DNA of 64,000 nt from Candidatus Omnitrophota bacterium (lineage in GTDB: Bacteria; Omnitrophota; Gorgyraeia; Gygaellales; Profunditerraquicolaceae), in NCBI GenBank assembly GCA_041662125.1, contig JBAZTA010000001.1, positions 324,761 through 388,760 on the forward strand. The letters are read 5' to 3'. The translations under genes and the position numbers were made by a program. This document shows, piece after piece, positions 2,645 through 50,370 of this stretch; positions within the stretch are counted from its first letter, which is position 1, and each line of letters begins with the position of its first letter. The notes below the pieces were generated by a model, which saw nothing but the letters and a program-made list of their open reading frames with translations, was not told where the DNA came from and did no database searches.

Positions 2645-2674
2645 ATATTAATCTTTAGTTTGACATTCTGTCCC

Positions 2675-4390: not shown

Positions 4391-4463
4391 GGTTTAACGT
4401 CAGGAATAGTTATAATCAAAACTTTTAACCATGGACTATAGACCATTGACCATGGACCAAGAA

Positions 4464-4922: not shown

Positions 4923-4974
4923 CTTTTCAAAGCGCCACTCCTGCCATCTCCATACAAATGCGGACGCCTTGCTG

Positions 4975-12544: not shown

Positions 12545-12590
12545 ATTTCACTGTATTGACAGGATTACGTGAGGTTTGCCGGCTTAAACC

Positions 12591-13877: not shown

Positions 13878-15221
13878 TTAAGGCATCATTTGCTTCAGTC
13901 GAACCAAGAAATCGGGAAAAGATTTATTCATACAGGCCACATCATCAACAATTGTTTGGCCTTCTGCCCTTAAACCAGCTACCACCATACTCATTGCAGT
14001 GCGATGATCACCAAAACTTTTAACCTTGGCACCGCGCAATCCTCTTTGGCCTTCAATAACGATATTTTCAGCCAAACCTTGCTTTTGAATAGTTATATGC
14101 GCACCCATTTTTTTTAAATTCTGCGTCATTGAGACAATCCTATCGGTTTCTTTAACCCGTAATTCCCTGACGGATTGAAACACGCTTTTACCCTGGGCAA
14201 AACAAGCAGCTACCATAAGGATCGGCAATTCATCGATCAAAGACGGCACTTCATCTTGAGTGACTGTCGTGGCTTTTAACATACGAGACTTCACCATAAT
14301 ATCAGCTACAGGCTCCTCACCCGCTGCCTGAACAGGCAGGAGAGAAACTTTCAAAAAAGCCCCCATTCTCTTTAAAACTTTCACAATACCGCTGCGGGAA
14401 GGGTTAAGGCTGACTTTCTGAATAATGATACAAGAATCAGGCACAAGCGTTGCAGCAACCATAAAAAAACTCGCGGAAGATATATCCCCGGGAACATATA
14501 TTTTCTTAGGAGAAATAAGCTCCTTATTGCCCCGGATGGATATTTTATTATGCTTGATCTTTATATCCGCTTTAAATAACGAAAATATCCGCTCTGTATG
14601 GTCACGGGTCTTAAGTGGTTCAATAACTTCAGTAACCCCTTGTTTGGTAAAAAGAGCTGCCAGCATGATCGCAGATTTCACCTGCGCGGAAGCAACCGGT
14701 AACCGGTAGTGAATAGGCTTAAGGTTTCCACCGTGTATGGTAAGGGGAGGATATTCTTCCGGGTGAGCAACATGAGGTTTATGGCGAGCGATTATCTGCG
14801 CTCCCATCATCCGTAACGGCCGGGTAACACGCAACATCGGCCTTTGTGAAAGTGATTTACCTGCTACCAACGTAACTTTAAAGTCACATCCCGCTAAAAC
14901 GCCCAGCACCAGGCGTAATGTCGTTCCGGAATCACCCACAAAAACAGGAGAAGACGGTTTCTTTAAACCAAAAATCCCTTGACCGAATACGGTTACCGTA
15001 TTACCAGTCAAGGGATTAAAGTTTTTAACTATCCTTACACCTAATTTACGTAATACTTCCAGTGTATAAAGGCAATCTTTATTTACCGGGAAGTTTTCTA
15101 TTGAAGTCTTTTCTTTTGCCAGAGCGCTGGCGATAATACACCGATGAGCTATAGATTTATCACCGGGGACACTCACGGTGCCCCGCAGATAAGGTATTGG
15201 CTTGACAACACATGACTTCAT
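13878..15221 (-). CDS. aroA: 3-phosphoshikimate 1-carboxyvinyltransferase (EPSP synthase).
   Basis: GTVSVPGDKSIAHR and VGDSGTTLRLVLGVLAG motifs; length 447 aa. Confidence 0.9.
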   Translation of the reverse strand: MKSCVVKPIPYLRGTVSVPGDKSIAHRCIIASALAKEKTSIENFPVNKDCLYTLEVLRKLGVRIVKNFNPLTGNTVTVFGQGIFGLKKPSSPVFVGDSGTTLRLVLGVLAGCDFKVTLVAGKSLSQRPMLRVTRPLRMMGAQIIARHKPHVAHPEEYPPLTIHGGNLKPIHYRLPVASAQVKSAIMLAALFTKQGVTEVIEPLKTRDHTERIFSLFKADIKIKHNKISIRGNKELISPKKIYVPGDISSASFFMVAATLVPDSCIIIQKVSLNPSRSGIVKVLKRMGAFLKVSLLPVQAAGEEPVADIMVKSRMLKATTVTQDEVPSLIDELPILMVAACFAQGKSVFQSVRELRVKETDRIVSMTQNLKKMGAHITIQKQGLAENIVIEGQRGLRGAKVKSFGDHRTAMSMVVAGLRAEGQTIVDDVACMNKSFPDFLVRLKQMMP

Positions 15222-16027
15222 TTAGCTTTTTGTATAACCTTATCGCCTTCACTCACTTTATCCTTTGTCTCGGTGGATACAAAGCCAGCCGCTGACATAG
15301 AATCGTGAATCTTTTCTATTTTAACGTCGCCGATGTAATCAGGCCCGTGATAAACGGAAAAAACATCCCCGATATCAATTCCTTCTTTTTTGCCTAAATT
15401 GGTTACCACAAAATTGTAATCTTTATTGATTACCAGGACCTTACCTTCTAATTTTGCAGAGGCATCTTTCTTGGGAACTTCGGCACCGGTTTTACCAGCA
15501 GTTGCTCCTCCAACAGCGCCTTCGGGGCTGACAACGATCTTGCCCAACTCGATCTTATGCGCTTGGTCCTCAAGCTCTTTTACCTTTTTCTCTAAAGCAA
15601 GCCGTTTTGACTCGATATCTTTGGATTGCGCCTGCATTTTAGAAAGCTCATCTGAAGTCTCATAAAACATTTTCTCCAAATAAGCTTTAGACTTCTTCTG
15701 TTCTTCTAATTGAGCATACATCTGGTCTATCTGCGAAAGAGCATCTTTTCTTGCAGATTTCTCCTGTTCTAAAGACAGCGTGATTTTCTCGCTTTGAAGA
15801 CGGGCTTCCTGCAATCTATTTTCCAGAGTAGCTATCTCTTTCTTAGCTGCTTTGAGATTTTCTAAAACTTCAAGCTCCTTGGCTTTTACGGCTTCTAATT
15901 GCTGCTGCACGCGGACTTTTTCATTACGTTCATTTTGCAATAAATAAAACGTTCCTCCCGCTAACCCCAAAGAAATTAAGATTAAAACTATTAAAATTAT
16001 TACGGAAGTCTTTCCTCTACTACCCAT
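15218..16027 (-). CDS. Hypothetical membrane-anchored coiled-coil protein with a C-terminal beta-rich domain. The start is trimmed to MGSRGKTS to remove the overlap with rluD.
   Basis: N-terminal TM (VIILIVLILISLGLAGG), about 150 aa of heptad-rich QLEAVKAKELEVLENLKAAKKEIATLENRLQEARLQ, and a C-terminal VLVINKDYNFVVTNLG...GDVFSVY domain. Confidence 0.5.
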   Translation of the reverse strand: MGSRGKTSVIILIVLILISLGLAGGTFYLLQNERNEKVRVQQQLEAVKAKELEVLENLKAAKKEIATLENRLQEARLQSEKITLSLEQEKSARKDALSQIDQMYAQLEEQKKSKAYLEKMFYETSDELSKMQAQSKDIESKRLALEKKVKELEDQAHKIELGKIVVSPEGAVGGATAGKTGAEVPKKDASAKLEGKVLVINKDYNFVVTNLGKKEGIDIGDVFSVYHGPDYIGDVKIEKIHDSMSAAGFVSTETKDKVSEGDKVIQKAK

Positions 16028-16094
16028 ACTCTCCTCCTTTTTTTCTGACCTTCGGACTACTATATCATTTCTTCTCAAAAAAGCAAGGGATTTA

Positions 16095-17018
16095 TTATCC
16101 CTTATCAAACTCAAGCTTAATAAAATCCTTAAACTCCTGAGGAATATCACAGGAGAATTCTATAAACTTGCCCGTAACCGGATGAGTAAACCCCAGAGAC
16201 CGCGCATGCAAGGCTAAACGGCTAAACTGATTATTTTGGCCGTATTTCTTGTCCCCTAAAATCGGATGGCCCATATAAGCCAGATGCACCCGCAATTGAT
16301 GAGTCCTGCCGGTAAAAGGCTCTAACTCTAGATAACTGAAAGTTTTACTTCGTTTTAGGCTGCGATAATACGTTTTGGCAAATCGAGTGTTCTCTCCAAA
16401 ATTAACGGACATATTTTGCCTTTTGTCAGGATGGCGGCCAATGGGCAATTCAATAATACTTTCATTAAATTCCATCCGCCCTTTCACCAAAGCGGCATAA
16501 TGGCGCTTAATCGTATGTTGCGCGAATTGCTTCGATAATGCCAGATGGGCAAGGTTGTTTTTTGCGACGACCAATATTCCCGAAGTATCTTTATCAAGCC
16601 GATGGACAATACCCGGCCTTTGAGGGTTAATGTCAGACAACTGTTTAAAATGATGTAAGAGCGCATTCACCAAGGTATGCTCAAGATTACCCGGTGCCGG
16701 ATGAACTACCAGCCCCGTTGGTTTATAAATAACTCCAACGTCTTTATCTTCATAAATAATATCAATAGGGATATCTTCCGGCTGCAAAAGGCTTTCTTCC
16801 TTATCCTGGACACATACCGTAATCACATCTGCGGCCTTAACTTTACCATGGGCTTTAAGAGCCGTCTCTTGAGCGAGGGAAACATTGCCTTGAGCTATTA
16901 ATTTCTGAATAAACATGCGGGAAAAACCAAGTTTTTCTTTAGCAAAAAAATCCATCAGGCACATATCCAACCGTTTTCCAGCGTTTTCGGGTAATACGGT
17001 AAGAGTGTATTCTTTCAT
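16095..17018 (-). CDS. rluD: 23S rRNA pseudouridine synthase, RluD/RluA family with an S4 domain.
   Basis: HRLDKDTSGILVVAKN catalytic motif. Confidence 0.9.
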   Translation of the reverse strand: MKEYTLTVLPENAGKRLDMCLMDFFAKEKLGFSRMFIQKLIAQGNVSLAQETALKAHGKVKAADVITVCVQDKEESLLQPEDIPIDIIYEDKDVGVIYKPTGLVVHPAPGNLEHTLVNALLHHFKQLSDINPQRPGIVHRLDKDTSGILVVAKNNLAHLALSKQFAQHTIKRHYAALVKGRMEFNESIIELPIGRHPDKRQNMSVNFGENTRFAKTYYRSLKRSKTFSYLELEPFTGRTHQLRVHLAYMGHPILGDKKYGQNNQFSRLALHARSLGFTHPVTGKFIEFSCDIPQEFKDFIKLEFDKG

Positions 17019-17055: not shown

Positions 17056-17511
17056 TTACTTCGAGGCAGCTGTTTTCTTAAACAATATCGCATACCCGAT
17101 CAATACCGCTCCTACCGTAATAGCGCTGTCGGCAATATTGAAGACCGGCCATATGCGAAAATCAAGGAAATCAATCACATGCCCAAAAATGATCCGGTCG
17201 ATTAAATTTCCTATCGCACCGGCAAGGATAAAACTCAAAGAAACACTCATCAAAGAAGGTTTCTTATGCTTATCACCCTTAAGATTATAATATATTAAAC
17301 CTATGGCAAACAGGGAAGTTATAATGAATAAAGGGACTTGATTCTTTAAGATTCCAAACGCTGCCCCGCGGTTATGAACAAGCGTTATATGAAAGATCCC
17401 CTTAATAACCGGAATTGACTGGTATAATGATAAACTCTTTATAACAACTATTTTGGTGAGCTGATCAAAGATAAGAACAGGCAAAACGATGATAAAGATC
17501 ATCAAAAGCAT
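17056..17511 (-). CDS. lspA: Lipoprotein signal peptidase II.
   Basis: NRGAAFG and FNIADSAI motifs with 4 TM; lies downstream of ileS. Confidence 0.9.
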   Translation of the reverse strand: MLLMIFIIVLPVLIFDQLTKIVVIKSLSLYQSIPVIKGIFHITLVHNRGAAFGILKNQVPLFIITSLFAIGLIYYNLKGDKHKKPSLMSVSLSFILAGAIGNLIDRIIFGHVIDFLDFRIWPVFNIADSAITVGAVLIGYAILFKKTAASK

Positions 17512-17514
17512 ACC

Positions 17515-17898
17515 TTACTTTTTCTCATTCTTTTCCTGGCACTTAATGCAAAACCGAGTGTAAGGGATCACCTTTAATCTTGTTTTAGAAATAACGACCT
17601 TACAATCTTCACAAACCCCGAATATGCCATCATCTATCCTCTTCATGGCATCATCTAACTCATATAACAACTCACGGTCGTTAGAAGCAAGCCCTAAGGA
17701 AAACTCCCGGTCATAGGTATCGGTAGCAACATCAGCCATATGATAGGAATAACCGGAAATATCCCCGGAAGCATCTTTTTGGGACTTTTTCAATGTTTCC
17801 TCTGAAATATGATTGATCGAATCAAGGATCTCGTCTTTCTTCTTAAGAATAAACTTCCTGAAATCTGTTAACTCTTTCTTGTTAAATTTCTTTTTCAA
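17515..17898 (-). CDS. DksA/TraR-family C4 zinc-finger protein.
   Basis: C-terminal CEDC...CIKC zinc finger and an acidic coiled-coil N-terminus. Confidence 0.7.
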   Translation of the reverse strand: MKKKFNKKELTDFRKFILKKKDEILDSINHISEETLKKSQKDASGDISGYSYHMADVATDTYDREFSLGLASNDRELLYELDDAMKRIDDGIFGVCEDCKVVISKTRLKVIPYTRFCIKCQEKNEKK

Positions 17899-17899: not shown

Positions 17900-20725
17900 T
17901 TACGTTCCTCCTATAGCTTGTACGCATTGTTTACAGATAAGCTCATACCCCGGGATATCTTTGACATCCGGAGTATAATTCCAGCAGCGCTGACATTTCT
18001 CACCCTTGGCTTTAACTACGGTAAGGGCGATATCAGGGAAACGTGCGCTTACTGCGTATGTACCTTCAAAACTACTCTTTTTTGTCACTTCGACCTGTGA
18101 AACTTTAAAAATCTCTAAGAGATCCTTCTCAAATCCCTTTAAATATGTATACCGGTTTTCATCGTTTGTCAATATATTTATTTTAGCGTCAAACGAACTT
18201 CCGATTACAGCCTCAACCCGTTTCTCTTCAAGTAATTTTGTAATATCCGGGATCAAATGCATTATTACCTGCAATTCCTCATGATGAGCAAAAACCGGAT
18301 TAACCTGCGGCCAGCCAGATCCATGGATACTTTGAAGCCCGGAATCTTTCTTCTCCTTGGGCATATGCTGCCAGACTTCTTCAGCGGTAAAACTTAGGAT
18401 AGGAGCGATCATTCTGGCTAAAACATGTAAAACCTCATACAGGACAGTTTGAGCGGCTCTGCGTTGCGGCGAATCAGCCTTATAGGTATAAAGCCTTCCT
18501 TTAACCATATCCAAATAATACATGGATAAATCTTCATTACAAAAATCGTAAATTAATTTATACGCTTTATGAAATTCAAATTTTTCATATGCAGCGCTAA
18601 CATCCACAAGGGCGCGCTCCCGGCAGCTCAATATCCACTGGTCGATTTTCCGCAAATCTTCAGGGCCAACCCTATCTGTTTCCGGATTAAAATCATACAG
18701 GTTACTTAACATAAAACGGATCGTATTACGGATCTTCCGGTAGGCTTCCGATAAACGCGACAAGATCTGGGTTGAAATCCGGATATCTTCATTATAATCG
18801 CTGGAAGCCACCCATAACCTGATAATATCAGCGCCGTAATTCTTAATGATATCAAACGGAGAGATGACATTACCGACCGACTTTGACATCTTCCTGCCTT
18901 CGCCATCAACGACAAAACCATGCGTCAAGACTTTACGGAACGGCGCTTTCCCGTCTATGGCAACTGAGGGTATCAGGGATGACTGGAACCACCCCCGGTG
19001 CTGATCGGAACCTTCCAGGTATAATTCGACAGGCGTATCTCCAAGTTCAGGCCGCTTCTTCACCACGGCCTGATGGCTTACCCCTGAATCAAACCATACA
19101 TCAAGAATATCAGGGCTTTTAGAAAATTCTTCTGATTTGCAATAAGGGCATACCAGGCCTTGAGGTATAAAATCTTTGATATCGCGCGAAAACCAGCAGT
19201 CAGAGCCTTCTTTGGCGCTCAACTCGGCAAAAATATCTATGATCCGGCTGTCAAAAAATTCCTCTTTGCATTTCACACATACAAGAGCAGGAACCGGCAC
19301 GCCCCAATAGCGCTGCCGCGACAGGCACCAGTCAGGCCGGGACTCCACCATCGCGTTTATCCTCTCTTTGCCTGACTGAGGGATCCAGGTAACATCCTCT
19401 TCTATTATCCGTAATAACCTCTCTCGCAACGTCTGCTCATATCCTGTTTCTTTATGATCAATAAGAAGAAACCACTGTTTTGTGGCGCGGAAAATTACCG
19501 GCGTCTTGCAGCGCCAGCAGTGGGGATACGAATGCTGGATCTTTCCTTCCGCAAGAAGCAAACCTAACCCTGCCAGCTTTTCTATAATAGGTTTATTGGC
19601 ATCAAAAACGTTCATGCCGGAAAATTCTCCGGCAACAGCTTCAAATTTGCCGTGGCTATCCACAGGCATCACTATTTCTAAACCATATTTTAAACCGGTC
19701 TGATAATCTTCGCTCCCATGGCCAGGCGCGGTATGCACGAGGCCGCTGCCCTCTTCTTTAGAAACATAGCCCGCAAGAACAACCTGTCCTTTTCTCAAGC
19801 CTAAGGGATGTTCATACGTCAATCCTTCCAGCTGCCTGCCTGAAATTTCCCTGACTATTTCATTCTTTTTTATCCCTGTTTCTCCTCCTGCTTTTGCCAA
19901 AACACCCATGTATAACTCTTTGGCGAGGATCAGATTCCCGAAATCTGTTGCCACATAAACATAGGTAAGGTCAGGATGAGCAGCTACTGCTACGTTAGCA
20001 ATCAAAGTCCAGGGCGTCGTAGTCCAAATAACCAGATAGCTGTCTTTTTTAAAATCCTGGTTATCATCTAAGCGGAATTTCACAAAGATTGACGGAGAAC
20101 TGTGATTATCATATTCCACCTCTGCCTCGGCAAGCGCTGTCTCGCATTTAAAACACCAGTTCACGGGTTTTAGGCCGCGGCTGATATACCCTTTTTTGTA
20201 AAGCGCATTAAATGACCTTACTATCGCTTCTTCATAATCATGGTTTAATGTCAAATACGGATTATCCCAATCACCGAAGACCCCTAACCGTTTAAATTGC
20301 TCCCGCTGATTGACGACATATTTCATTGCGTACGCATGGGCCTTTTTCCTGAATTCCAGTTGTGCTATCTGCGACTTATGGATTTTAAGTTCCTTAAGGA
20401 GCGCGTGTTCGATCGGCAGCCCGTGGCAATCCCACCCGGGAACATAAGCAGAATCATAGCCGCACATCGTCTGATATTTCACCACGATATCCTTGAGCGT
20501 TTTGTTAAGCGCATGGCCGATATGGATATCGCCGTTTGCGTACGGAGGGCCGTCGTGCAGTATATATTTCGGTTTCCCTTTTGAATTCTTGCGGATAAAC
20601 CCGTATATATCCTGTTGCTGCCACTGCGCCAGGAGCAAAAGCTCGCGTTTCGGCAAGTCAGCCTTCATGGGAAAATCTGTTTTTGGTAAATTGAGAGTGT
20701 TTTTATAATCCATGTAAGTAAGCAA
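17900..20725 (-). CDS. ileS: Isoleucine--tRNA ligase.
   Basis: HIGH (PYANGDIHIGHAL) and KMSKS motifs with C-terminal Zn-binding cysteines; 941 aa. Confidence 0.95.
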   Translation of the reverse strand: MLTYMDYKNTLNLPKTDFPMKADLPKRELLLLAQWQQQDIYGFIRKNSKGKPKYILHDGPPYANGDIHIGHALNKTLKDIVVKYQTMCGYDSAYVPGWDCHGLPIEHALLKELKIHKSQIAQLEFRKKAHAYAMKYVVNQREQFKRLGVFGDWDNPYLTLNHDYEEAIVRSFNALYKKGYISRGLKPVNWCFKCETALAEAEVEYDNHSSPSIFVKFRLDDNQDFKKDSYLVIWTTTPWTLIANVAVAAHPDLTYVYVATDFGNLILAKELYMGVLAKAGGETGIKKNEIVREISGRQLEGLTYEHPLGLRKGQVVLAGYVSKEEGSGLVHTAPGHGSEDYQTGLKYGLEIVMPVDSHGKFEAVAGEFSGMNVFDANKPIIEKLAGLGLLLAEGKIQHSYPHCWRCKTPVIFRATKQWFLLIDHKETGYEQTLRERLLRIIEEDVTWIPQSGKERINAMVESRPDWCLSRQRYWGVPVPALVCVKCKEEFFDSRIIDIFAELSAKEGSDCWFSRDIKDFIPQGLVCPYCKSEEFSKSPDILDVWFDSGVSHQAVVKKRPELGDTPVELYLEGSDQHRGWFQSSLIPSVAIDGKAPFRKVLTHGFVVDGEGRKMSKSVGNVISPFDIIKNYGADIIRLWVASSDYNEDIRISTQILSRLSEAYRKIRNTIRFMLSNLYDFNPETDRVGPEDLRKIDQWILSCRERALVDVSAAYEKFEFHKAYKLIYDFCNEDLSMYYLDMVKGRLYTYKADSPQRRAAQTVLYEVLHVLARMIAPILSFTAEEVWQHMPKEKKDSGLQSIHGSGWPQVNPVFAHHEELQVIMHLIPDITKLLEEKRVEAVIGSSFDAKINILTNDENRYTYLKGFEKDLLEIFKVSQVEVTKKSSFEGTYAVSARFPDIALTVVKAKGEKCQRCWNYTPDVKDIPGYELICKQCVQAIGGT

Positions 20726-20738: not shown

Positions 20739-21596
20739 TTATTTAATGTATTTTCCGATAATAATTTTTAAATCTTTCTTAACTTTCGCCGGGATACGTA
20801 ATCTGTCGGTCACAATCGCGTACTCAAGAGAAGCCCCACAACCACAACTACGTTTCTCCGGGAGGCCCTGTATCGCAAAGGACAAAATCTTTTTCGCGTT
20901 TTCAATATTCTTCTGCAAATTCCTTATCACCATTTCCGCCGTTACGCTTTCATGATGAGGATGCCAGCAATCATAATCGGTAACTGCCGCCAGCGTCGAA
21001 TAACATATTTCAGCTTCCCGGGCAAGCTTTGCTTCAGGCATATTGGTCATACCAATAACATCCATGCCCCAGCTGCGATAAAGATTCGATTCGGCTCTCG
21101 TAGAAAACGCCGGCCCTTCCATATTAAGATACGTACCGCCGTTATGAATAGTAACTTTTGTTTTCTTTCCCGCGGCATAAACCATTGAACTTAATTCTTT
21201 GCATATCGGATGCGCAAAAACCATATGAGCGACAATTCCGCCGCTAAAGAACGTCATCTCACGGGATTGATTCGTACGGTCAACAAACTGGTCAACTACC
21301 ACAAAATCCAAAGGAGCCAAATGGTCTTTAAGGCTGCCGCAGGCAGTAACTGAAATAATCCGTTCAACCCCCAGTTTTTTCATGCCAAAAATATTAGCGC
21401 GGTAATTTATTTCACTCGGTGAAATACGGTGCCCTCTTCCATGCCGGGGAAGAAAAACAACCTCTTTGCCTTCTAAAATTCCGGTAATAAAAGCATCTGA
21501 AGGCTCTCCAAACGGTGTATGAACGATGCGCTCTTTAACTTTTTTGATCCCCTCAATGTTGTACAGCCCGCTGCCACCTATAATACCGATGCGCAT
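20739..21596 (-). CDS. mtnP: S-methyl-5'-thioadenosine phosphorylase (PNP/MTAP family).
   Basis: MRIGIIGGSGLY N-terminus and PNP_UDP_1 fold motifs. Confidence 0.85.
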   Translation of the reverse strand: MRIGIIGGSGLYNIEGIKKVKERIVHTPFGEPSDAFITGILEGKEVVFLPRHGRGHRISPSEINYRANIFGMKKLGVERIISVTACGSLKDHLAPLDFVVVDQFVDRTNQSREMTFFSGGIVAHMVFAHPICKELSSMVYAAGKKTKVTIHNGGTYLNMEGPAFSTRAESNLYRSWGMDVIGMTNMPEAKLAREAEICYSTLAAVTDYDCWHPHHESVTAEMVIRNLQKNIENAKKILSFAIQGLPEKRSCGCGASLEYAIVTDRLRIPAKVKKDLKIIIGKYIK

Positions 21597-21630: not shown

Positions 21631-22497
21631 TTACTGCATTTCCGTATAATCGATCCTCTTTGACAGTTCTTCAGCGCGCCTGCGAGCTACTTCCACCGCC
21701 TCTTTTAATCCTGCGCCGCTATGTAAAACCTGTAAAGCAGCTTCAGTCGTTCCCCCCTTGCTAACAATTTGAGCCAGTAATTCCAGAGGGGAAAGCCCTG
21801 TTACGCTAAGCATTCCCAGGCTTCCCTCAACAGTCGCCCGAGACAACACCTGGGCCTGCTCTTCATTAAACCCGATATTTTTTGCTGCCGCTAAGAGACG
21901 GGGGAAAAAAACTTCCCAGCTGAAACGGTTAACCTCATCCATTTTCTTTAAATTAATATTTTCTTTAATCAGCAAATCATAAAAATATCCCGGGCCGCTG
22001 CCGGAAATCGCGGTTGCTGAGTTCATCATATATTCAGGGATAACCACGGTCTCTCCCAAGTGATTAAATAACTGCGTGACAAAAAGTAAATCTTGAGCAC
22101 TGGTAAACTTGCCTGCACATAAACAAGAAATGCCTTTACCGATACGGGCAGGCATGTTTGGCATGACCCGGACAACGCGAGCATCGACTAAATACTTTTC
22201 GATATATTCCATACGTAACCCGGCTGCAATAGAAATAACAAGGACATCGTGTGTGTGCCCCTTGATTCCTCCTAAAAGAGCGTCAAAATCCTGAGGTTTG
22301 ACCGCAAGTATCAACGCGACAACCCTATCTGCCACTTCTACCGCGCTACTCCCCACCTGAACATCTAAAATTTGATCGGTCTTTTTGAAATCATGGTCAT
22401 AAATGAACAATTCATAGAGATCTTTATGCTGTTTAAGCCTTTCGCCTATCACCATTCCCATATTGCCATAACCGATAATACCAATCTGCTTTTTCAT
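21631..22497 (-). CDS. proC: Pyrroline-5-carboxylate reductase.
   Basis: IGIIGYGNMG Rossmann motif and a P5CR C-terminal dimerisation domain. Confidence 0.85.
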   Translation of the reverse strand: MKKQIGIIGYGNMGMVIGERLKQHKDLYELFIYDHDFKKTDQILDVQVGSSAVEVADRVVALILAVKPQDFDALLGGIKGHTHDVLVISIAAGLRMEYIEKYLVDARVVRVMPNMPARIGKGISCLCAGKFTSAQDLLFVTQLFNHLGETVVIPEYMMNSATAISGSGPGYFYDLLIKENINLKKMDEVNRFSWEVFFPRLLAAAKNIGFNEEQAQVLSRATVEGSLGMLSVTGLSPLELLAQIVSKGGTTEAALQVLHSGAGLKEAVEVARRRAEELSKRIDYTEMQ

Positions 22498-22512: not shown

Positions 22513-23181
22513 TTATACACCGGTTTCAAAAATGACTCTGCCGAGCCGCACCAGAGAAGCGCCTTCCTGGATTGCAACCTCAAAATCACCGCTCATGCCC
22601 ATAGAAAGAATAGTTAATTGATGAATATCGTTAATTTCGTTAAACAAAGCTCTCGCTCTCTTGAAATACGGCCGCGCCGTTTCCGGATCATCTACGATCG
22701 GAGCAATCGCCATTAAACCTTTTATACGGATGTTCCCGAAACCAGAAATTTCTTTGACGATTTCAACGGCCTCTTCAGGCCTTATTCCAAATTTTGATTT
22801 ATCCCTGGAGATGTTCACCTCAACCAAAATATCCTGAATTTTATGGATCTTGGCTGCCTGCCGGTCAATTTCCTCTGCCAGGCGAAGGCTATCGACTGAC
22901 TCGATCAGATCAAAAATCCTGACCGCATCTTTTGCCTTATTGGTTTGCAGATGGCCGACCATATGCCAGGTGATAGGCGATAACGATCTGTATTTAGAAA
23001 GCGCTTCTTGTACTTTGTTTTCGCCAATATGAGTAATACCGCCAGCCACGACTTCTTCAATGCTGGCAATATCCCTGCCCTTAGAAACCGCGACTATCGC
23101 GACACTCTCGGGATCACGGTTGGCGCCGGCGCAGATTAAAGAAATCCGCTTTTTTATTCCAGCAATATTTTCTTTAATCAT
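22513..23181 (-). CDS. yggS: YggS-family pyridoxal-phosphate homeostasis protein.
   Basis: Alanine-racemase N-domain-like, 222 aa, with the VAVSKGR PLP-lysine motif. Confidence 0.85.
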   Translation of the reverse strand: MIKENIAGIKKRISLICAGANRDPESVAIVAVSKGRDIASIEEVVAGGITHIGENKVQEALSKYRSLSPITWHMVGHLQTNKAKDAVRIFDLIESVDSLRLAEEIDRQAAKIHKIQDILVEVNISRDKSKFGIRPEEAVEIVKEISGFGNIRIKGLMAIAPIVDDPETARPYFKRARALFNEINDIHQLTILSMGMSGDFEVAIQEGASLVRLGRVIFETGV

Positions 23182-23262
23182 CTTTAAACAAAGCCGGCTT
23201 TAAAACGATCACAGAAAAATGGTTTAACTGGAATATTATATACTATAAATTATCAGGGTCAA

Positions 23263-24516
23263 TTAAAAGTATTCCTGATAGATATCTTTGATTTTATTGA
23301 TTGTTTTCAGGAATGGATTCCGGGACGGCTGGATAGCCGGCAAAGCCAAAGGCTTACTTTCTCGCTGAGTAAAACAAATGATCCCCAAAGCCGCAAGATA
23401 GGATAAATATTTTTGCCCCGAGAGATTCCCCTGTTTATGGATTGCGGCTGCCAAATCAGGATTAACAATCCTTCCGAGCCGTGTTGGCACACCCAATACC
23501 TTCTCAAGCATTTCAAGAAGCCCCTCCTGCTGAAAAGCCCTCCCGCAAACGACAACCCGGTCAACTCCAGTACAAGGCATATGTTTCTCTATCGTGCCTA
23601 AAAGGCTTTGGCAAAATGATTTTGCTTTCGCGGTAAGACAATCGGTAACCATTTTTAATTTTATCGGGTTATACACAGTATCTTTTTTAATCAGGATTTC
23701 TTTATCCTGGCTCGTTTCGGGCCTCTCATCAATAACGCCATGCGTGATTTTGATCTCTTCGGCAAAATCAAAAGAGATCTTTAATTCTCGCGCCAGTTCC
23801 AGCGTAAAATCATTGCCCCCTACCGGCAAGATCTCGATGATCTTAAGAGCGTCATCCTGAAAGAACAACAACTCGGTAATATCACTGCCGACATCGCAAA
23901 ATACGGTCATGCCATGATTATCTTCCGGAGAAAACACAGCTGCACTCGTCGCAAGTCCCGAGAAAAACAGGTCTTTTATTTCGTAACCGGCCTGATTAAC
24001 CGCATGCGTGAAACTCTGTAACGCCGATAATCGCGCGCAAATCAGGTATAAATCGATTTCTAATTTATGGCTATAGAGCCCCAACGGATTTAAACAATTG
24101 CTTTTGGAATCAATATTATAACTATACGGGATCTCATGGATGATCTCTTCATCAAGGTTGGACCCCAGGATCACTGCCTGCTCCTTGACTTTTTGAATAT
24201 CTGAATTGGTAATGACCTTATTGCCGCGCTCAATAAGCGGAAGGATCGCCCGGCTATGCCTGGTAATGACTTCTTTACCGGAAAGGTTAACGTAAATGTA
24301 TTTAATCGCGATCCCGGACTTTACTTTCAGGTTTTTCAATAAAGAACTCACACCACTGACCAAGGCAACAGAATCAACAATCGCGCCATTTTTAACAGCC
24401 TGAGAAGCCACCGTATCACAAAAAACATCAACCACTCGCTTTTTCTTGACTACAACCACGGCAGCGGAAATCTTACTATTGCCGATATCCACGGCACAAA
24501 CATAATTCGTAAGCAT
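23263..24516 (-). CDS. ftsA: Cell division protein FtsA (divergent).
   Basis: VDIGNSKISAAV phosphate-1 motif and actin/HSP70 fold; lies after ftsQ. Confidence 0.85.
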   Translation of the reverse strand: MLTNYVCAVDIGNSKISAAVVVVKKKRVVDVFCDTVASQAVKNGAIVDSVALVSGVSSLLKNLKVKSGIAIKYIYVNLSGKEVITRHSRAILPLIERGNKVITNSDIQKVKEQAVILGSNLDEEIIHEIPYSYNIDSKSNCLNPLGLYSHKLEIDLYLICARLSALQSFTHAVNQAGYEIKDLFFSGLATSAAVFSPEDNHGMTVFCDVGSDITELLFFQDDALKIIEILPVGGNDFTLELARELKISFDFAEEIKITHGVIDERPETSQDKEILIKKDTVYNPIKLKMVTDCLTAKAKSFCQSLLGTIEKHMPCTGVDRVVVCGRAFQQEGLLEMLEKVLGVPTRLGRIVNPDLAAAIHKQGNLSGQKYLSYLAALGIICFTQRESKPLALPAIQPSRNPFLKTINKIKDIYQEYF

Positions 24517-24532: not shown

Positions 24533-25324
24533 TCACTTATCTTTAAATCGTATCACCGGCTCTTTAAACCGCATATCTATATACTGAATCGTAGCTAAAT
24601 CGTTGTTAAACTGCGTAAATAATCCGGACAGAATACTTATCTTTTCATCGACCTTCCCGGAATTAATCCGGACTTCCAAATCCTGCATCGTTAATTCATT
24701 TTCGCTCTGAGGGTTGCTCGGCCGGCTGGCAATAGGGATAAAAAAAGAAATCATCTCTGGTTTTTTTATATCAATACGGGCGATCCGGTATGATTTGAGC
24801 ACCCTGTCCCCACGCGTTGCCTGAATAATATCCAGAGCAAAAGCAAGCTGAGGAATATGATATTGACTCCCGACATGTGGGAAAGAAAGCCTGTTTTCCA
24901 GCCCTACAATAATAGGCAAATCGGGATCTTGCGGCAGAAAATCAGCATCCCACAACGATAATTCCCTGTCAACATAATAATACCGCCCCAGCTTAACGGC
25001 AGCCAACGCAATACGCTCCTGCAAATCAACAAACAACTGGTTCGGCAAAATCCTTATTATCCTGATCTTCTTATAAACCGGATATAACTCAGAGACATGC
25101 CGGGCTATTTTCTTTAAATCAAGAACAAAGATGTTCCTGCCTTTCAGGAATGAAACATTTTCCGGCTTGTTGGCGTTAACAATAACATCTTTGACCAAAA
25201 AATAATCGCAATTTCTTATCCACCGCAGGCTATAAACTCCCAAAGCATATAACGCCAGAAAAATCATTCCCGCAGAAACCAGATATTTAAAAACTAACCC
25301 CTGAAACTTGGGAGACTTTTTCAT
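24533..25324 (-). CDS. ftsQ: Cell division protein FtsQ (POTRA domain).
   Basis: Single N-terminal TM and POTRA-like region, between ddl and ftsA. Confidence 0.7.
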   Translation of the reverse strand: MKKSPKFQGLVFKYLVSAGMIFLALYALGVYSLRWIRNCDYFLVKDVIVNANKPENVSFLKGRNIFVLDLKKIARHVSELYPVYKKIRIIRILPNQLFVDLQERIALAAVKLGRYYYVDRELSLWDADFLPQDPDLPIIVGLENRLSFPHVGSQYHIPQLAFALDIIQATRGDRVLKSYRIARIDIKKPEMISFFIPIASRPSNPQSENELTMQDLEVRINSGKVDEKISILSGLFTQFNNDLATIQYIDMRFKEPVIRFKDK

Positions 25325-26252
25325 AAGCTAATTCAAGCAACCTTGTGCAAAGCTGATTAAATCCCATCCCGGTCAACCACGCTGCCTTCGGTAAAAGGCT
25401 GGTTTCAGTAAGACCGGGGATCGTATTAACCTCCAACACAAACGGTATATGATCCTCTGTTAAAATAATATCCACCCGGGAACACCCATAACACCCCAAA
25501 AGGTTATGAGCCGATAATGCCACATCCTGCACTTTATGAACCAGCGACTCATCGATCTGTGCGGGTACTCTATACTGAGTCAGCCCCGGTTTATACTTAG
25601 CTTCAAAATCAAAAAAACGATGAGTTGGGATAATCTCAATGACCGGCAGTGCTTTATTATCAAGAATGGCTACCGTAAGCTCTTTTCCATGGATATATTC
25701 ATCAACGAGGACATGGCTATCATAACTGAAAGCAAACTCTATCGCCTTTTCTAAATCTTCTCTGCGGTCAACGATCGATAAGCCGATACTTGACCCGTGC
25801 GTAGCAGGCTTGACCACCAGCGGCAGACGAAGCTCACTGATCCGCTGCAAACTCGCAGCGCTCAACCCTTGATCCAACGCCACATATCGCGGGGTAGCTA
25901 ACCCGTGCGCATCAAAAATCTCGCGTGAAGCGATTTTATCCATTGCCAGCCTGCTGGCGATAGCGCCTGAACCGGTATACGGGATCTTCAAGTTATCCAA
26001 TAAACCCTGGAGGATCCCGTCTTCTCCAAAATGCCCGTGTAACGCCAAGAATATACAATCAAGGTGCTCTAATTTAAGCAACCGGGCATTCGCGGGGATA
26101 TCGTCCGACACAATATCGATCGGGACAACAGAACAACCCTCCTTACTCAAACTTTCATACACCGCCTTGCCTGACTTAAGAGAGATCTCCCGTTCCGTAG
26201 ACGGGCCTCCCATTAATATACCGATCCTGCCGAATTTAGATTCTCTGCTCAT
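25287..26252 (-). CDS. ddl: D-alanine--D-alanine ligase.
   Basis: ATP-grasp fold with LHGHFGEDG and EVNTIPG motifs. Confidence 0.9.
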   Translation of the reverse strand: MSRESKFGRIGILMGGPSTEREISLKSGKAVYESLSKEGCSVVPIDIVSDDIPANARLLKLEHLDCIFLALHGHFGEDGILQGLLDNLKIPYTGSGAIASRLAMDKIASREIFDAHGLATPRYVALDQGLSAASLQRISELRLPLVVKPATHGSSIGLSIVDRREDLEKAIEFAFSYDSHVLVDEYIHGKELTVAILDNKALPVIEIIPTHRFFDFEAKYKPGLTQYRVPAQIDESLVHKVQDVALSAHNLLGCYGCSRVDIILTEDHIPFVLEVNTIPGLTETSLLPKAAWLTGMGFNQLCTRLLELAYEKVSQVSGVSF

Positions 26253-26267: not shown

Positions 26268-27197
26268 TTACTGCCATATTTTGATCTCCGGCTGTAACGT
26301 TAGTTTATATTTCTTTTTCACGGCACTTTTTACCAATCCCATTAATGCCAGGACATCAGATGCTTTCGCGTTTCCCCGGTTAAGCAGGAAATTAGCGTGC
26401 TTTCCCGAGATATACGCATCGCGGATATGTTCCCCTTTTAAACCGCAGGAATCGATCAACTGGCCTGCAGAATATGATTGAGGATTCTTAAAAACACACC
26501 CCGCAGAAGGAAACGAAAGGTCCTGGGTTTGACGCCGGTAATCTCTATAATGCCGCATAATTCTTGAAATTTCCCTCGCATCTTTTTCGCGCAGGGCCAG
26601 CCGCGCGCCAAGAACAATATATTTCGATAAACTTGACCTGCGATAACCAAAGGTAATATCTTCTTTCGACACTACCTTTAAACTTCCATTATAACTCATT
26701 ACGGTAACATTTTCCACTAAATCCCCAATATTTATTGCTGCGCGGCAATCGAAAGACGACTTCTTTGAAATCCCCGCGTTCATCACGAGCGCCCCTCCAA
26801 GCGTTCCCGGGATCCCGCTTAAGAATTCCAGCCCCGAGAACCCCCGCTTCTTTGCAGCCATAACGATCTCGCCTAGCCACCTGCCCGCGCCGGCATCAAG
26901 TACGCCTGCCTGAAAATCTAATTCTTTAAAAGCAGGTGAGCTCAACGATATCACAACCCGCTCAACGCCTTTATCAGAAACCAAAAGATTACTGCCGCCA
27001 CCTATTACTGAAAATGGTATTGTATGTTTTTTTAAAGAAACAATCAAGGCTTTTAAGTCATCACTATCTTTCGGCTCGACAAAAAAACGCGCCGGCCCCC
27101 CGATACGAAAGCTGGTATGCTTTTTAAGCGGCTCCTGTTTCTTAACGCTTCCTTTTAAGTTCTTCCACCAATTCATCGCAAACCTTGATAATGTCAC
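26268..27197 (-). CDS. murB: UDP-N-acetylenolpyruvoylglucosamine reductase.
   Basis: FAD-binding TSFRIGGPA motif and a MurB C-terminal domain. Confidence 0.9.
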   Translation of the reverse strand: MTLSRFAMNWWKNLKGSVKKQEPLKKHTSFRIGGPARFFVEPKDSDDLKALIVSLKKHTIPFSVIGGGSNLLVSDKGVERVVISLSSPAFKELDFQAGVLDAGAGRWLGEIVMAAKKRGFSGLEFLSGIPGTLGGALVMNAGISKKSSFDCRAAINIGDLVENVTVMSYNGSLKVVSKEDITFGYRRSSLSKYIVLGARLALREKDAREISRIMRHYRDYRRQTQDLSFPSAGCVFKNPQSYSAGQLIDSCGLKGEHIRDAYISGKHANFLLNRGNAKASDVLALMGLVKSAVKKKYKLTLQPEIKIWQ

Positions 27198-28515
27198 CTG
27201 CCCCCAAAGTGATAATCAGATCTCCCGCAGCACGTATCTTAAGCAAATGGCTGACTATCAGGTCTTTCGGGACAAAATGTACCTCTCTATCCGGATAACG
27301 CTTTTTTATCTTATCACACATAACAGACGCCTCAACGCCCTCACGGGGAGGTTCGCTGGCAGCATAAATATCAGTAATAATCACATAATCAGCATCGTCA
27401 AAACTTGCGCAAAATTCATCCATAAGTAATTGTGTGCGGCTATACCGGTGCGGCTGGAATACCGCGATGATCCTCTCCCGCGGCATAGCAGTAATCGCAG
27501 ACAACGTTGCCTTGATCTCAGTCGGATGATGCGCGTAATCATCAATAACCAAACACCCGTCCCCTCGAAACTTGATCTCTTGCCGACGGCAGGAGCCTTT
27601 ATAGTTCGACAGGACATTTTTAATCACATCCATGCCAATACCCAGATGCATTCCCAGAGCGATCACCGCCAAAGAATTAGATATATTATGCCTGCCTCCC
27701 AGCGCCAAATGAATCCGCCCCAGGCACGTATTATTATAATAACAGTCAAATGAAGAGGTTAAATCTTTAAACAGGATATTGCGCGGATAAATATCTGCGC
27801 GCTCATCAAGGCCAAACAAAACATATTTATTTTTATAGTCAGCCGCCAAACGCCGCAGGTTATCATCGTCATAGCAAGATATCAGAAGGCCGCCCTCGCG
27901 GATACGCCCCATGAAATCACTATACGCCTCAATGATATGCGCGAAATCACGGTAATAATCCAAATGCTCCCTGTCAATATTAGTAATGACTGCGTAGTGC
28001 GGCTTATAATATAAAAAAGTACCGTCGGACTCATCCGCCTCAGCCACAAAGAAATCCCCTTTTCCGAACGAAGCATTCGTGTCGATATTCTTAACAATGC
28101 CTCCGACTGCTATTGTCGGAGAAAGCCCTGCCTCCAATAAGAGGTACGCGATAAGAGAACTTGTCGTGGTTTTCCCGTGGCTGCCGGTAACCGCGATGAC
28201 CGTTTTATCTGCCATTAAATCAACAAGCGCCTGGGCGCGTTTGATCACGCTCACCCCTCGTTTAACCGCTTCCTGAAACTCTGGATTATCCTCTTTTATC
28301 GCGGAAGAATAAATAATGAGTTGCGCACCATCGATATTGCTGGGTTTATGCCCGATAAATATTTCCACACCCGCAAGCCTCAGGGCATCGGTCGTTTTAC
28401 TGGCCTTACAATCAGACCCGCTGATCTTAATACCGCGGCCAAGCAAAAGATACGCTATAGCGCTCATGCCAATACCGCCGATCCCGATCAAATGATATTG
28501 TTTCTGTCCGGTCAT
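27142..28515 (-). CDS. murC: UDP-N-acetylmuramate--L-alanine ligase.
   Basis: GIGGIGMSA N-terminus and the Mur ligase GSHGKTTT motif. Confidence 0.9.
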   Translation of the reverse strand: MTGQKQYHLIGIGGIGMSAIAYLLLGRGIKISGSDCKASKTTDALRLAGVEIFIGHKPSNIDGAQLIIYSSAIKEDNPEFQEAVKRGVSVIKRAQALVDLMADKTVIAVTGSHGKTTTSSLIAYLLLEAGLSPTIAVGGIVKNIDTNASFGKGDFFVAEADESDGTFLYYKPHYAVITNIDREHLDYYRDFAHIIEAYSDFMGRIREGGLLISCYDDDNLRRLAADYKNKYVLFGLDERADIYPRNILFKDLTSSFDCYYNNTCLGRIHLALGGRHNISNSLAVIALGMHLGIGMDVIKNVLSNYKGSCRRQEIKFRGDGCLVIDDYAHHPTEIKATLSAITAMPRERIIAVFQPHRYSRTQLLMDEFCASFDDADYVIITDIYAASEPPREGVEASVMCDKIKKRYPDREVHFVPKDLIVSHLLKIRAAGDLIITLGAGDIIKVCDELVEELKRKR

Positions 28516-28528: not shown

Positions 28529-29311
28529 TTATTTTTTACTGGTAAGAGAACGCATCCAGGCATCACCCATCTCCGCGACACTCCCGAAACTATAGGTGCT
28601 TGCCAAGGACCTCACCAGGTCCTGCTTATCCCGTAACGCCTGGCAGAATGACACAAACCTATCCGCCCCAAACGTTCGTATGAGATAGTCGACCACATTG
28701 ACTGACTCCGCGTAAAACAACTGAACCACAGACTGATCCCCCATCATCTGCGGGTTTAACTGCACAAGCGTTTCAAAACGTATAAATACGTTCATGCGTA
28801 TTGCTTCTCTGATAAGCTGCCCTGCTGAAGCGACCCGGGATGCTTCCTGATAAGAAGCGACTCCTTCATCCAGGCAAACGGGAACCGCGCGGTTATTAAA
28901 ACCAACAAATTCCCTGAAAATAATATGCGCCATTTCGTGAGGCAGAAGCGATTCAAAAAAACCTGACGCATTGGTGAAGGTATGGATGATTTTCTCCTGA
29001 GGACGAACTGCACCGCTTACCCAGGACGGCTGTCCGGTAGCAGCATGGAAACTTCCCGCGTCATCATGGATATAGATCAGCGCCCGGTTATCCCAAAGCC
29101 AGAAATTATAACGGCGAAACCCTAATCTTTCCGTAATCCTATCATAACAGGCTTCCAGCTTCTCAATCGAGCGGTTAACAAAATCAAGAGGTGCATTCTT
29201 ATAATGAACAATAAAATGCGTGCTCTTTGCCTGCTGCCACGCCGGCTCTGCGCAAACCGCAAAGGAATGCGTAAGTGTGATACAACACAAGAGAAAAAAT
29301 AATCGTTTCAT
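28529..29311 (-). CDS. Secreted HExxH zinc metallopeptidase-like protein (Peptidase_MA_2-like), inserted between murG and murC.
   Basis: Signal peptide MKRLFFLLCCITLTHSFAVCA, then HEMAHII followed by LDEGVASY (HExxH...EG.A.Y). Confidence 0.6.
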   Translation of the reverse strand: MKRLFFLLCCITLTHSFAVCAEPAWQQAKSTHFIVHYKNAPLDFVNRSIEKLEACYDRITERLGFRRYNFWLWDNRALIYIHDDAGSFHAATGQPSWVSGAVRPQEKIIHTFTNASGFFESLLPHEMAHIIFREFVGFNNRAVPVCLDEGVASYQEASRVASAGQLIREAIRMNVFIRFETLVQLNPQMMGDQSVVQLFYAESVNVVDYLIRTFGADRFVSFCQALRDKQDLVRSLASTYSFGSVAEMGDAWMRSLTSKK

Positions 29312-30399
29312 CTTTCAAGCAGTCCAAACGCCTCAGCAACAAGAGTCACGTCAGCTTTAAGGCGGATATGACTTTCTGCATCAAACGAAGGTGTCCTGTT
29401 CTTTAAAGGACGGCGCAGGAAATCGGCAATCACCGTGCGCATCCGCGAAGCGTTTAATTGTTGTTCTTCAATAATGACCGCGCCTAAATCTTCTGCCAGG
29501 ACAGAAGCATTTTCCCGCTGATGCGCGTAGGCAAAAGGATAGGGAATAATAAGCGCCGGTAATCCAAAGAAAAGAAGTTCCGCCAGCGTAGTAGCTCCTG
29601 CCCGCGAGACGACAAAATCGCATGCACTATAGGAATACTCCATTGATTCAATAAAAGCAAAAACCCTGGCGCGCATCTTTAAATCGCGATACTGCTTTTG
29701 CACTGTTTCAAGATCCCCGGAGCCGGCAAGATGTATAACCTGCAGCTTCTCCCTTTCGGGCATCGCGGCAATAGCTTCCAAAAAACTAAGGTTGATCCGG
29801 TGGCTGCCTTGGCTGCCCCCCATCACTAAAAGTGTCGTTAATCCAGATTCAAAACCAAAAAACTCCAACGCTTTCTTTTTGTCAACCCGAACCAAACCCG
29901 AGCGTAAGGGATTACCGGTTACGACGATCTTATGGCCAGCGTTCTTGAAGAACGCTTTTGTCCTCTCAAAGGAAACAGCGATCCGATGAGCAAACCGGGC
30001 TAAGAACATATTCGCTTTTCCCGGAACCACATTCTGCTCATGCAGCATGATTTTAACCCCCGCCAAACGCGCGAAGAAAACAATGGGGATACAAACAATA
30101 CTGCCAAAAGCAACCACCAGTTCCGGGCGAAAAGAAATAAGGATTACCAGGCTTTCAAAAAAAGCACGGCATAATTGCAGCAGCGCGGCGGCATTCTGAA
30201 GGGTCAGTTTCCTACCGATAGGCACGACGGAAATAAATGCCGTTCGATAACCGCTCAAATCAAGATGCCGCTTAATACTGACGCGCGGCAAAACTAATAA
30301 AGCTTCAGGACAAGTGGGGCGTTTTTTACAGCTATCTAAAAAACTTAAAGCGGGAAAAATATGCCCGCCGCTTGCTCCGGTAACAACTAAAATCTTCAT
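29308..30399 (-). CDS. murG: Lipid II synthase MurG (UDP-GlcNAc transferase).
   Basis: TGASGGHIFPALS N-terminal motif and a GT28 C-terminal domain. Confidence 0.9.
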   Translation of the reverse strand: MKILVVTGASGGHIFPALSFLDSCKKRPTCPEALLVLPRVSIKRHLDLSGYRTAFISVVPIGRKLTLQNAAALLQLCRAFFESLVILISFRPELVVAFGSIVCIPIVFFARLAGVKIMLHEQNVVPGKANMFLARFAHRIAVSFERTKAFFKNAGHKIVVTGNPLRSGLVRVDKKKALEFFGFESGLTTLLVMGGSQGSHRINLSFLEAIAAMPEREKLQVIHLAGSGDLETVQKQYRDLKMRARVFAFIESMEYSYSACDFVVSRAGATTLAELLFFGLPALIIPYPFAYAHQRENASVLAEDLGAVIIEEQQLNASRMRTVIADFLRRPLKNRTPSFDAESHIRLKADVTLVAEAFGLLER

Positions 30400-30438: not shown

Positions 30439-31530
30439 TTAAGGATATTCGCCCGCGCGGGCAATATTCATCAGAATACCGACGCTAATCATGTCAAAAA
30501 TAAACGAAGATCCACCATAACTGATAAAAGGCAGCGGCAGCCCTTTAGTCGGTAATACCCCGCAAGAAACCCCGATATTAACCATTGCCCGGATACTTAA
30601 CATTAACAATAATCCCAGGCTTAAGAAATAACCGAATTTATCCGGCGCGTATTTTATGACCTTGAGCCCCTGATGCACGAAAACAATAAACAGGATAATT
30701 ACCCCAATGGTACCGATCAGGCCCAATTCTTCACCAATAATGGAAAAAATAAAATCAGTATGGGCTGCGGGAAGAAAAAACAATTTTTGTTTCGAATGGC
30801 CTAACCCTACGCCGAATATCCCCCCTGACCCTAAAGCTATCTGTGATTGAATGATCTGAAAACCGCTCCCCTTCGGATCAGCCCAGGGATTCAAGAACGC
30901 CATGATACGCATCCTGCGGTAAGGAACACTGAATATCAACACATATAAAAGCGGCAGCCCCGCCAAAACCACGGACATAAGATGGGTCATCCGAACGCCA
31001 GCGATAAAAAGCATTACAAAAACTACTACCCCCAATGCCAGGGATGTCCCCAGGTCAGGCTGCAGGAGCATCAACAACACACTCCCTCCTAAAATCAACA
31101 TAATCGGCAGGAAACCCCAAACAAAAGACCGTAAAGCATCTTTCTTACGGACAATAAAATCCGCGATATAAATAATAACCGCGATATTGGCTAATTGCGA
31201 AGGCTGAAAACTGATGAATTTAAAACGGAACCAACGCTGGGCGCCTGACACTTCCCTGCCTAACCCCGGGATCAAAACTAATACCAGTAAACCAAAAGCA
31301 ATTAATAAAAAAGGTTTGGCGATCAACCTTAATTTCTTGTAATCAATCGCCATAATAAAAAACGTCAGCAACACTCCCACGAGCAGAAAAATAATGTGCC
31401 GCTTCAAAAAAAAGAAACCATCTCCGTATTTTTCCCAGGCATAGATACAGGAAGAGCTGTAAATCATCACGATGCCAATACAGATCAAAATAATGGTCGT
31501 GATAAATAATTTAATCCGGATAACGCGCAT
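30439..31530 (-). CDS. ftsW: SEDS-family divisome glycosyltransferase FtsW.
   Basis: FtsW/RodA family membrane protein between murD and murG. Confidence 0.85.
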   Translation of the reverse strand: MRVIRIKLFITTIILICIGIVMIYSSSCIYAWEKYGDGFFFLKRHIIFLLVGVLLTFFIMAIDYKKLRLIAKPFLLIAFGLLVLVLIPGLGREVSGAQRWFRFKFISFQPSQLANIAVIIYIADFIVRKKDALRSFVWGFLPIMLILGGSVLLMLLQPDLGTSLALGVVVFVMLFIAGVRMTHLMSVVLAGLPLLYVLIFSVPYRRMRIMAFLNPWADPKGSGFQIIQSQIALGSGGIFGVGLGHSKQKLFFLPAAHTDFIFSIIGEELGLIGTIGVIILFIVFVHQGLKVIKYAPDKFGYFLSLGLLLMLSIRAMVNIGVSCGVLPTKGLPLPFISYGGSSFIFDMISVGILMNIARAGEYP

Positions 31531-42448: not shown

Positions 42449-42467
42449 GCGCTTGTCTCCTTTTTCC

Positions 42468-42815: not shown

Positions 42816-42926
42816 ACGTTTATCTCCTTATTTCGGCAATCTAAGAAATTACTTTTCCTCTATGGTATAATTCTACCACAAAAAAAACTCTTATACGAGC
42901 CAATAACACAAGTGAAGGATTATCGA

Positions 42927-50369: not shown

Positions 50370-50370
50370 A

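Follow-up and report, generated by a model that had tools for sequence, protein, structure and literature searches.

Here we show that the dcw cluster of a Candidatus Omnitrophota genome ends at ftsA, with no ftsZ, in a stretch of 64,000 nucleotides (the whole of the DNA analysed, hereafter, the window), and that the same junction recurs in other genomes. Cytokinesis in bacteria is organised almost universally by FtsZ, for which FtsA is mainly known to serve as the membrane tether. The best explanation overall, to which we assign a probability of about 0.88, is that ftsZ was lost early in the phylum Candidatus Omnitrophota (OP3, PVC superphylum), and that the dcw cluster therefore ends at ftsA. 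Under this explanation, the genes that lie 3' of ftsZ in many bacteria, namely, yggS followed by proC, mtnP, ileS, lspA and rluD, would have come to abut ftsA.

The final gene of the cluster, ftsA (23263-24516, minus strand, 417 aa), which is recognised by the Pfam models FtsA and SHS2_FTSA and by TIGR01174, is followed on the same strand by yggS (ylmE), a gene for a PLP-binding protein (22513-23181; TIGR00044 at 188.2 bits against a cut-off of 106.25, and Pfam Ala_racemase_N). The two genes are separated by the canonical ftsZ slot, a spacer of exactly 81 nt (23182-23262, minus strand) that is too short for a gene and contains no ftsZ remnant, either on direct reading of the sequence or by tblastn. 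Hence, where a canonical dcw cluster has ftsZ directly 3' of ftsA, yggS is found instead. The initial annotation had described a dcw cluster terminating at ftsA without ftsZ, a gap of 81 nt, and yggS and then proC beyond it; the open reading frames, the Pfam and NCBIfam assignments and the sequence itself bear out this description, together with its coordinates. On the minus strand, the downstream series comprises proC, encoding pyrroline-5-carboxylate reductase (21631-22497; Pfam P5CR_dimer and F420_oxidored, with TIGR00112 at 184 bits, slightly under its cut-off of 196.75); mtnP, encoding S-methyl-5'-thioadenosine phosphorylase (20739-21596; TIGR01694, 319 bits); and, as assigned with Pfam, ileS (17900-20725), a dksA/traR-type zinc-finger gene downstream of ileS (17515-17898), lspA (17056-17511) and rluD (16095-17018).

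Upstream of the junction, the dcw cluster is complete by Pfam and NCBIfam, in the order mraZ-rsmH-ftsL-like-ftsI-murE-murF-mraY-murD-ftsW-murG-murC-murB-ddl-ftsQ-ftsA, with one extra gene. All these genes are on the minus strand: mraZ (39959-40399), rsmH (39028-39933), an ftsL-like ORF assigned by its position and N-terminal hydrophobic segment only (38558-39016), ftsI (36793-38517), murE (35316-36836), murF (33928-35337), mraY (32823-33911), murD (31537-32799), ftsW (30439-31530), murG (29308-30399), murC (27142-28515), murB (26268-27197), ddl (25287-26252) and a divergent ftsQ (24533-25324). The latter matches Pfam FtsQ_DivIB_C weakly (22.2 bits, just over the 21-bit cut-off) and POTRA_1 below threshold (20.3 bits, cut-off 23), and its placement between ddl and ftsA is kept in the relatives. 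The extra gene, located between murG and murC (28529-29311, minus strand), encodes a zinc metallopeptidase-like protein of the Peptidase_MA_2 family and is unusual company for dcw genes; it occupies the same place in the relatives L001 and L003 and is missing in L004. In L003, murB is split into two ORFs (7391-8295; FAD_binding_4 and MurB_C), which could reflect a frameshift or a sequencing error. The dcw cluster is adjoined by ribF (40556-41467).

No FtsZ was detected in the 64-kb window by tblastn at E<=100 with the FtsZ sequences of E. coli and B. subtilis as queries; the top match (E=1.4, 54 aa) fell within the ftsL-like ORF. For a survey at the species level, an FtsA profile was run against one genome per GTDB species, which yielded 80 loci with 1.15 Mb of dcw neighbourhood. 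FtsZ was found in 0 of these 80 loci, both by tblastn (E<=1e-5) and by phmmer --max (E<10) applied to every stop-to-stop segment of at least 60 aa, and the tubulin signature motif likewise occurred in 0 of 80. The longer ftsA-yggS spacers of the relatives, like the spacer in the window, contained no ftsZ remnants, with fragments shorter than 60 aa covered by tblastn alone.

The junction itself is widely shared. The gene order ftsQ-ftsA-yggS-proC-MTAP-ileS was found in 3 of 3 relatives, at 84%, 53% and 52% FtsA identity, whose assemblies (JGI, NCBI and Logan) derive from different samples, and no Tubulin/FtsZ_C gene was called in their loci. The independent assemblies that show the junction, with different samples and assemblers, include JGI 3300029288, Logan SRR8542065 and CAZPNW01, and it was observed in close relatives (L001, L002 and L006, with 84-85% FtsA identity) as well as in distant ones, down to 46-52%. 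Downstream genes were counted in the 72 of the 80 loci that extend at least 700 bp beyond ftsA. In 55 of these, yggS is located immediately 3' of ftsA, with a median spacer of 68 nt (range -1 to 688); in another 2, an inserted gene is followed by yggS; and 15 carry an unrelated gene 3' of ftsA. The unrelated genes checked with Pfam encode a UvrD helicase, histidine kinases, a nucleotidyl transferase, an IS200 transposase, a polyprenyl synthase and a helicase/PLD protein. Because the junction recurs in independent assemblies, it is a conserved feature of the lineage and not a misassembly.

In the course of the survey, many GTDB representatives titled 'uncultured Planctomycetales' (for example, L006, L008, L027, L031 and L037) were found to bear an Omnitrophota-type FtsA, as was one record each titled 'Margulisiibacteriota' and 'Verrucomicrobiota'. 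Most of these records show the ftsA-yggS synteny too where the contig is long enough, and their NCBI titles are probably mislabelled.

The absence of ftsZ from Omnitrophota is not new here: it is already published, in a supplementary note and in a figure legend, and is under-appreciated. The supplement of Seymour et al. 2023 (PMC10066038) reports 421 Omnitrophota genomes without an ftsZ homolog, with one exception; the sole ftsZ is archaeal-like and 89% identical to an archaeal protein and, therefore, represents contamination or recent transfer. Pende et al. 2021 (PMC8178401; Fig. 5 legend and Supplementary Data) include Omnitrophica among the FtsZ-less groups, along with Planctomycetes and Chlamydiae; in their table, 3 of 5 Omnitrophica genomes have FtsA without FtsZ or SepF, and ftsZ is missing in 4 of 5, with only bin OLB16 having an ftsZ, adjoining ftsA. 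The same 'Omnitrophica' bin, OLB16, was the only one with FtsZ in Rivas-Marin et al. 2016, who asked whether the data were incomplete. Contrary to these surveys, Henriques et al. 2025 (PMC12283558) grouped Omnitrophota with the phyla that have 'highly conserved' dcw genes; the supplements of that paper hold no Omnitrophota rows that would settle the conflict with the FtsZ-less surveys. A 2025 review of PVC bacteria presents planctomycetes as the sole free-living bacteria dividing without FtsZ. The initial annotation had implied that the missing ftsZ was a peculiarity of one genome, a framing that does not hold for what is a known trait of the phylum.

The window covers 64 kb of the genome, and a simple relocation of ftsZ to another locus would be compatible with this and with the grouping of Omnitrophota among the phyla of 'highly conserved' dcw genes (Henriques 2025, PMC12283558). 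We nevertheless consider relocation very unlikely, given that no bacterial ftsZ was found in the 421 genomes of Seymour 2023, that the gene is missing in 4 of the 5 genomes of Pende 2021, and that the 1.15 Mb of sequence flanking ftsA in the 80 species surveyed contains no FtsZ. The original proposal, that ftsZ had been excised or relocated, thus stands in its first part, which agrees with the empty slot and with 0 of 80 loci encoding FtsZ, and is very unlikely to hold in the second, which is at odds with the surveys of Seymour 2023 and Pende 2021. The initial annotation had also pointed to a possible misassembly at the junction. That an assembly or binning artefact, namely, a misjoin between ftsA and yggS, dropped ftsZ is a possibility that exists a priori for a MAG, but the chance of it is negligible in the face of the same junction in JGI 3300029288, Logan SRR8542065, CAZPNW01 and 55 of 72 species representatives, of a window that contains no N, and of a spacer in which the ftsA-proximal ~30 nt are near-identical in relatives with 84-85% FtsA identity. 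Given the phylum-level literature and the synteny, and with 64 kb covered directly, it is very likely that this genome has no ftsZ anywhere.

The conserved part of the spacer coincides with a promoter-like element, TTGACC-N16-TATAAT (23235-23262, minus strand), which begins right after the ftsA stop codon. This element matches 11 of 12 consensus positions and was the top match in a 5-kb scan, in which promoter-like matches overall were not commoner than in shuffled sequence. From the ftsA stop to 2 bases past the -10 hexamer, only one base among the ~30 nt varies in three relatives with 84-85% FtsA identity; in the same three, the remaining, 3' part of the spacer diverges and contains an indel. 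The element and its conservation suggest that yggS, proC and the genes that follow constitute a separate transcription unit, which would probably start from this putative promoter within the 81-nt spacer, at the former ftsZ slot.

The FtsA encoded in the window is 100% identical to MFA6216323.1 (NCBI), which is encoded on a contig of 646,436 bp in a MAG of a Candidatus Omnitrophota bacterium. Among the 120 matches listed, most of which carry no organism label, all those with a source name and an organism belong to Candidatus Omnitrophota/Omnitrophica; close relatives are represented among the listed matches at 83-84% identity, and the remaining matches cluster at 52-57%. The protein passes the family models Pfam FtsA (65 bits, cut-off 31.8) and SHS2_FTSA (44.6 bits, cut-off 25.4), and is barely over the cut-off of TIGR01174 (177.5 bits versus 175.85). 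The AlphaFold2 model (pLDDT 84.6, pTM 0.82) includes all four subdomains, and both this model and Foldseek indicate the actin-like fold in which the FtsA-specific subdomain 1C (SHS2) replaces 1B. The top-ranked Foldseek matches are the FtsA crystal structures 7Q6F, 7Q6I, 7Q6D and 7Q6G (TM 0.78-0.88), with 4A2A at 0.74/0.82, and the top PilM entries (0.55-0.72) rank behind FtsA. A low-pLDDT disordered linker (residues 387-400) precedes a C-terminal amphipathic helix (residues 401-416 in the model), for which residues 402-417, FLKTINKIKDIYQEYF, give a hydrophobic moment of 0.56, compared to 0.57 for the E. coli membrane-targeting sequence. The protein is thus predicted to end in a membrane-targeting helix following a flexible linker. 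The terminal YQEYF (413-417) is invariant at all five positions in a 15-sequence alignment, and in 86 sequences, E415, Y416 and F417 are invariant, with Y413 and Q414 present in at least 90%.

The mean column identity of FtsA in an alignment of 86 homologues is 69%, with many invariant residues. In the 80 loci, tblastn gives an uninterrupted end-to-end alignment of ftsA, with ~414-424 codons, wherever the contig permits, and the gene directly follows ftsQ in the dcw cluster in both the window and the relatives. As judged from these uninterrupted reading frames, the invariant residues, the confident FtsA fold and the conserved position after ftsQ, ftsA is under strong purifying selection and is not decaying. 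Conservation within the phylum is highest in subdomain 1C (mean majority frequency 0.84), which in model bacteria is responsible for the recruitment of late divisome proteins and for lateral filament contacts.

Subdomain 2B of canonical FtsA binds the C-terminal tail peptide of FtsZ. In Omnitrophota, the conservation of 2B (0.71) is the same as that of 2A and near that of the other non-1C regions (0.72-0.77), and relaxed constraint on 2B was therefore rejected; being non-degenerate, 2B must retain some role. This subdomain also makes the longitudinal FtsA-FtsA filament contact (Nierhaus 2022, PMC7613929). The sequence of the helix that exits 2B is IE[PA]RxxE in E. coli, Vibrio, Xenorhabdus and S. 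aureus, and [IL]TxKAKx in Omnitrophota, where a lineage-specific pattern, [IL]-T-x-K/x-A-K, takes the place of the residues aligned to E298, R300 and E303 of E. coli; the equivalent of R300 is K in 62% of the Omnitrophota FtsAs and variable in the others, and that of E303 is S or L. In canonical FtsA, R300 and E303 reportedly contact FtsZ, as part of the site that binds its tail, and the alteration of these positions in aligned sequences is only a lead. In the ASKHA adenosine motif (residues 325-326), the canonical GG, as in TGGAAQ of E. coli and TGGSAN of S. aureus, is changed to GR in 95% of the 86 Omnitrophota sequences, a substitution that may alter nucleotide binding. The phosphate-2 motif, DIGSDIT, was considered as another unusual feature and rejected, given that S. 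aureus FtsA has DIGEDVT.

These features bear on two further alternatives, both of which concern what FtsA does now. A tubulin-superfamily protein too divergent for the FtsZ models, or a non-homologous replacement of FtsZ, might be encoded elsewhere in the genome and tethered by FtsA; the conservation of 2B, on a par with that of the other non-1C regions, would suggest that a binding partner persists, and the lineage-specific pattern at the equivalents of E298, R300 and E303 can be read in the same way. We deem such a partner very unlikely: the window and the 80 loci yielded neither a tubulin signature nor even a weak phmmer match, the published HMM surveys (Pende 2021, PMC8178401; Seymour 2023, PMC10066038) report none, and the longitudinal FtsA-FtsA contact made by 2B (Nierhaus 2022, PMC7613929) could alone account for its conservation. 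Conversely, FtsA could be a remnant in decay that takes no part in division, which would then depend purely on MreB, RodZ and FtsK, as it does in Chlamydiae according to the literature as relayed by Henriques 2025 (PMC12283558). Although mreBCD, rodZ and ftsK are all present in the window, the ftsA of the 80 loci, uninterrupted wherever the contig permits, with its invariant residues, confidently predicted fold and fixed position after ftsQ, makes this extremely unlikely.

The genes for the elongasome (overall 8456-13664, minus strand) were assigned with Pfam and consist of mreB (12591-13664), mreC (11771-12544), mreD (11262-11774), the PBP2 gene (9553-11265) and rodA (8456-9646); murA is located nearby, on the same strand (13878-15221). 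At the other end of the window, also on the minus strand, ftsK (59503-61680; Pfam FtsK_4TM, FtsK_alpha, FtsK_SpoIIIE and FtsK_gamma) has rodZ directly 3' of it (58663-59502; HTH_25 and RodZ_C). The products of both these genes, with MreB, are organisers of division in Chlamydiae, and their adjacency (58663-61680) in a very probably FtsZ-less genome may be meaningful. Between rluD and murA/mreB, the window contains an ORF of 310 aa (15218-16150, minus strand) that belongs to no Pfam family and in which an N-terminal hydrophobic segment, a long coiled-coil-like stretch and a small C-terminal domain can be discerned by eye. A family-less ORF occupies this position in L001 and L004 as well, and we regard it as a candidate lineage-specific envelope or cytoskeletal factor.

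Several other loci on the minus strand of the window deserve mention. The region 875-6402 encodes a tandem pair of T2SSE/PilB-type ATPases that have MshEN domains, a lone MshEN-domain protein and a GAF-GGDEF diguanylate cyclase, and has the appearance of a pilus or secretion module linked to c-di-GMP. The region 41468-44271 encodes an NrnA/DHH-like protein, RbfA and a nucleotidyltransferase. The match of the nucleotidyltransferase to the 'A-adding tRNA nucleotidyltransferase' model is confined to the C-terminal half of that model (454-877 of 880), and the DHH protein shows a weak match to its N-terminal part (4-298), so that this region may encode a split version of a protein that is fused elsewhere. 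A riboflavin cluster (49770-54738) comprises ribE/Lum_binding, ribD, ribH and ribBA, among which nusB and a PHP-domain gene are interspersed.

If ftsZ was indeed lost early in Omnitrophota and the dcw cluster ends at ftsA for this reason, division in these bacteria would be FtsZ-independent and would still use FtsA. By analogy with MreB and with the FtsA double filaments of E. coli, membrane-bound polymers of FtsA could form a cytoplasmic scaffold that recruits or orients FtsQLB-FtsWI via subdomain 1C; we put the odds of this part of the explanation, FtsZ-independent division with an FtsA filament acting on FtsQLB-FtsWI, at slightly worse than even. MreB, RodZ and FtsK may assist division in Omnitrophota, as they do in Chlamydiae. 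More broadly, Omnitrophota would be the one major bacterial lineage (per the survey of Pende 2021) that has lost FtsZ and combines a strongly conserved FtsA with a full dcw cluster, and in which FtsA is an FtsZ-independent cytokinetic scaffold, a tentative proposal with a little under an even chance of being correct. On such a scaffold, FtsA filaments might position and activate FtsQLB-FtsWI directly, in ultra-small cells, and the changes in the 2B helix, along with that from GG to GR in the adenosine motif, would mark the re-purposing of FtsA.

A lineage that lacks FtsZ and yet has FtsA, the synthesis of peptidoglycan and all of the late divisome amounts to a natural experiment, and could show what FtsA can do alone and how the Z-ring becomes dispensable. 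The retention of FtsA without FtsZ is a state that is little discussed in the PVC literature, and the initial annotation was fair in its remark that an FtsA without its usual partner merits attention, the subject being still largely unexplored.

Compared with the canonical dcw clusters of E. coli, B. subtilis and Verrucomicrobium spinosum, the cluster in the window has the same content and order from mraZ to ftsA, and differs in the missing ftsZ and in the Peptidase_MA_2 gene between murG and murC. The resemblance may extend downstream: the series yggS...ileS-lspA-rluD appears similar to the extended Firmicute region on the B. subtilis map, ftsZ...ylmE...divIVA-ileS-lspA-rluD. The features that membrane-bound filaments require, as in the FtsA double filament described as a divisome 'rudder' by Nierhaus et al. 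2022 (PMC7613929), namely, the fold, 1C and the amphipathic helix, are all represented in the FtsA of the window, by sequence and model. The filaments of E. coli FtsA, however, function together with FtsN and downstream of the Z-ring, whereas a Z-ring is very probably lacking in this genome, and the window yielded no FtsN. The Chlamydiota and Planctomycetota, which belong to the same PVC superphylum, resemble Omnitrophota in having no FtsZ, and MreB, RodZ and FtsK, the organisers of chlamydial division, are encoded in the window too. In contrast, according to the literature, Chlamydiae and nearly all Planctomycetes have lost FtsA also, whereas Omnitrophota retain it together with a full, contiguous dcw cluster; the gene set of the window accordingly departs from the Chlamydia type (MreB, RodZ and FtsK, with FtsA absent) in its present and conserved FtsA. 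The closest counterparts are the FtsZ-less Omnitrophota of Seymour 2023 and Pende 2021, which display the same phenomenon, many of them keeping ftsA, and of which the window is a further example. Those studies give presence or absence only, and what is added here is the exact junction with its conservation in 55 of 72 loci, a description of the promoter-like element, and an anatomy of the FtsA that these bacteria have kept.
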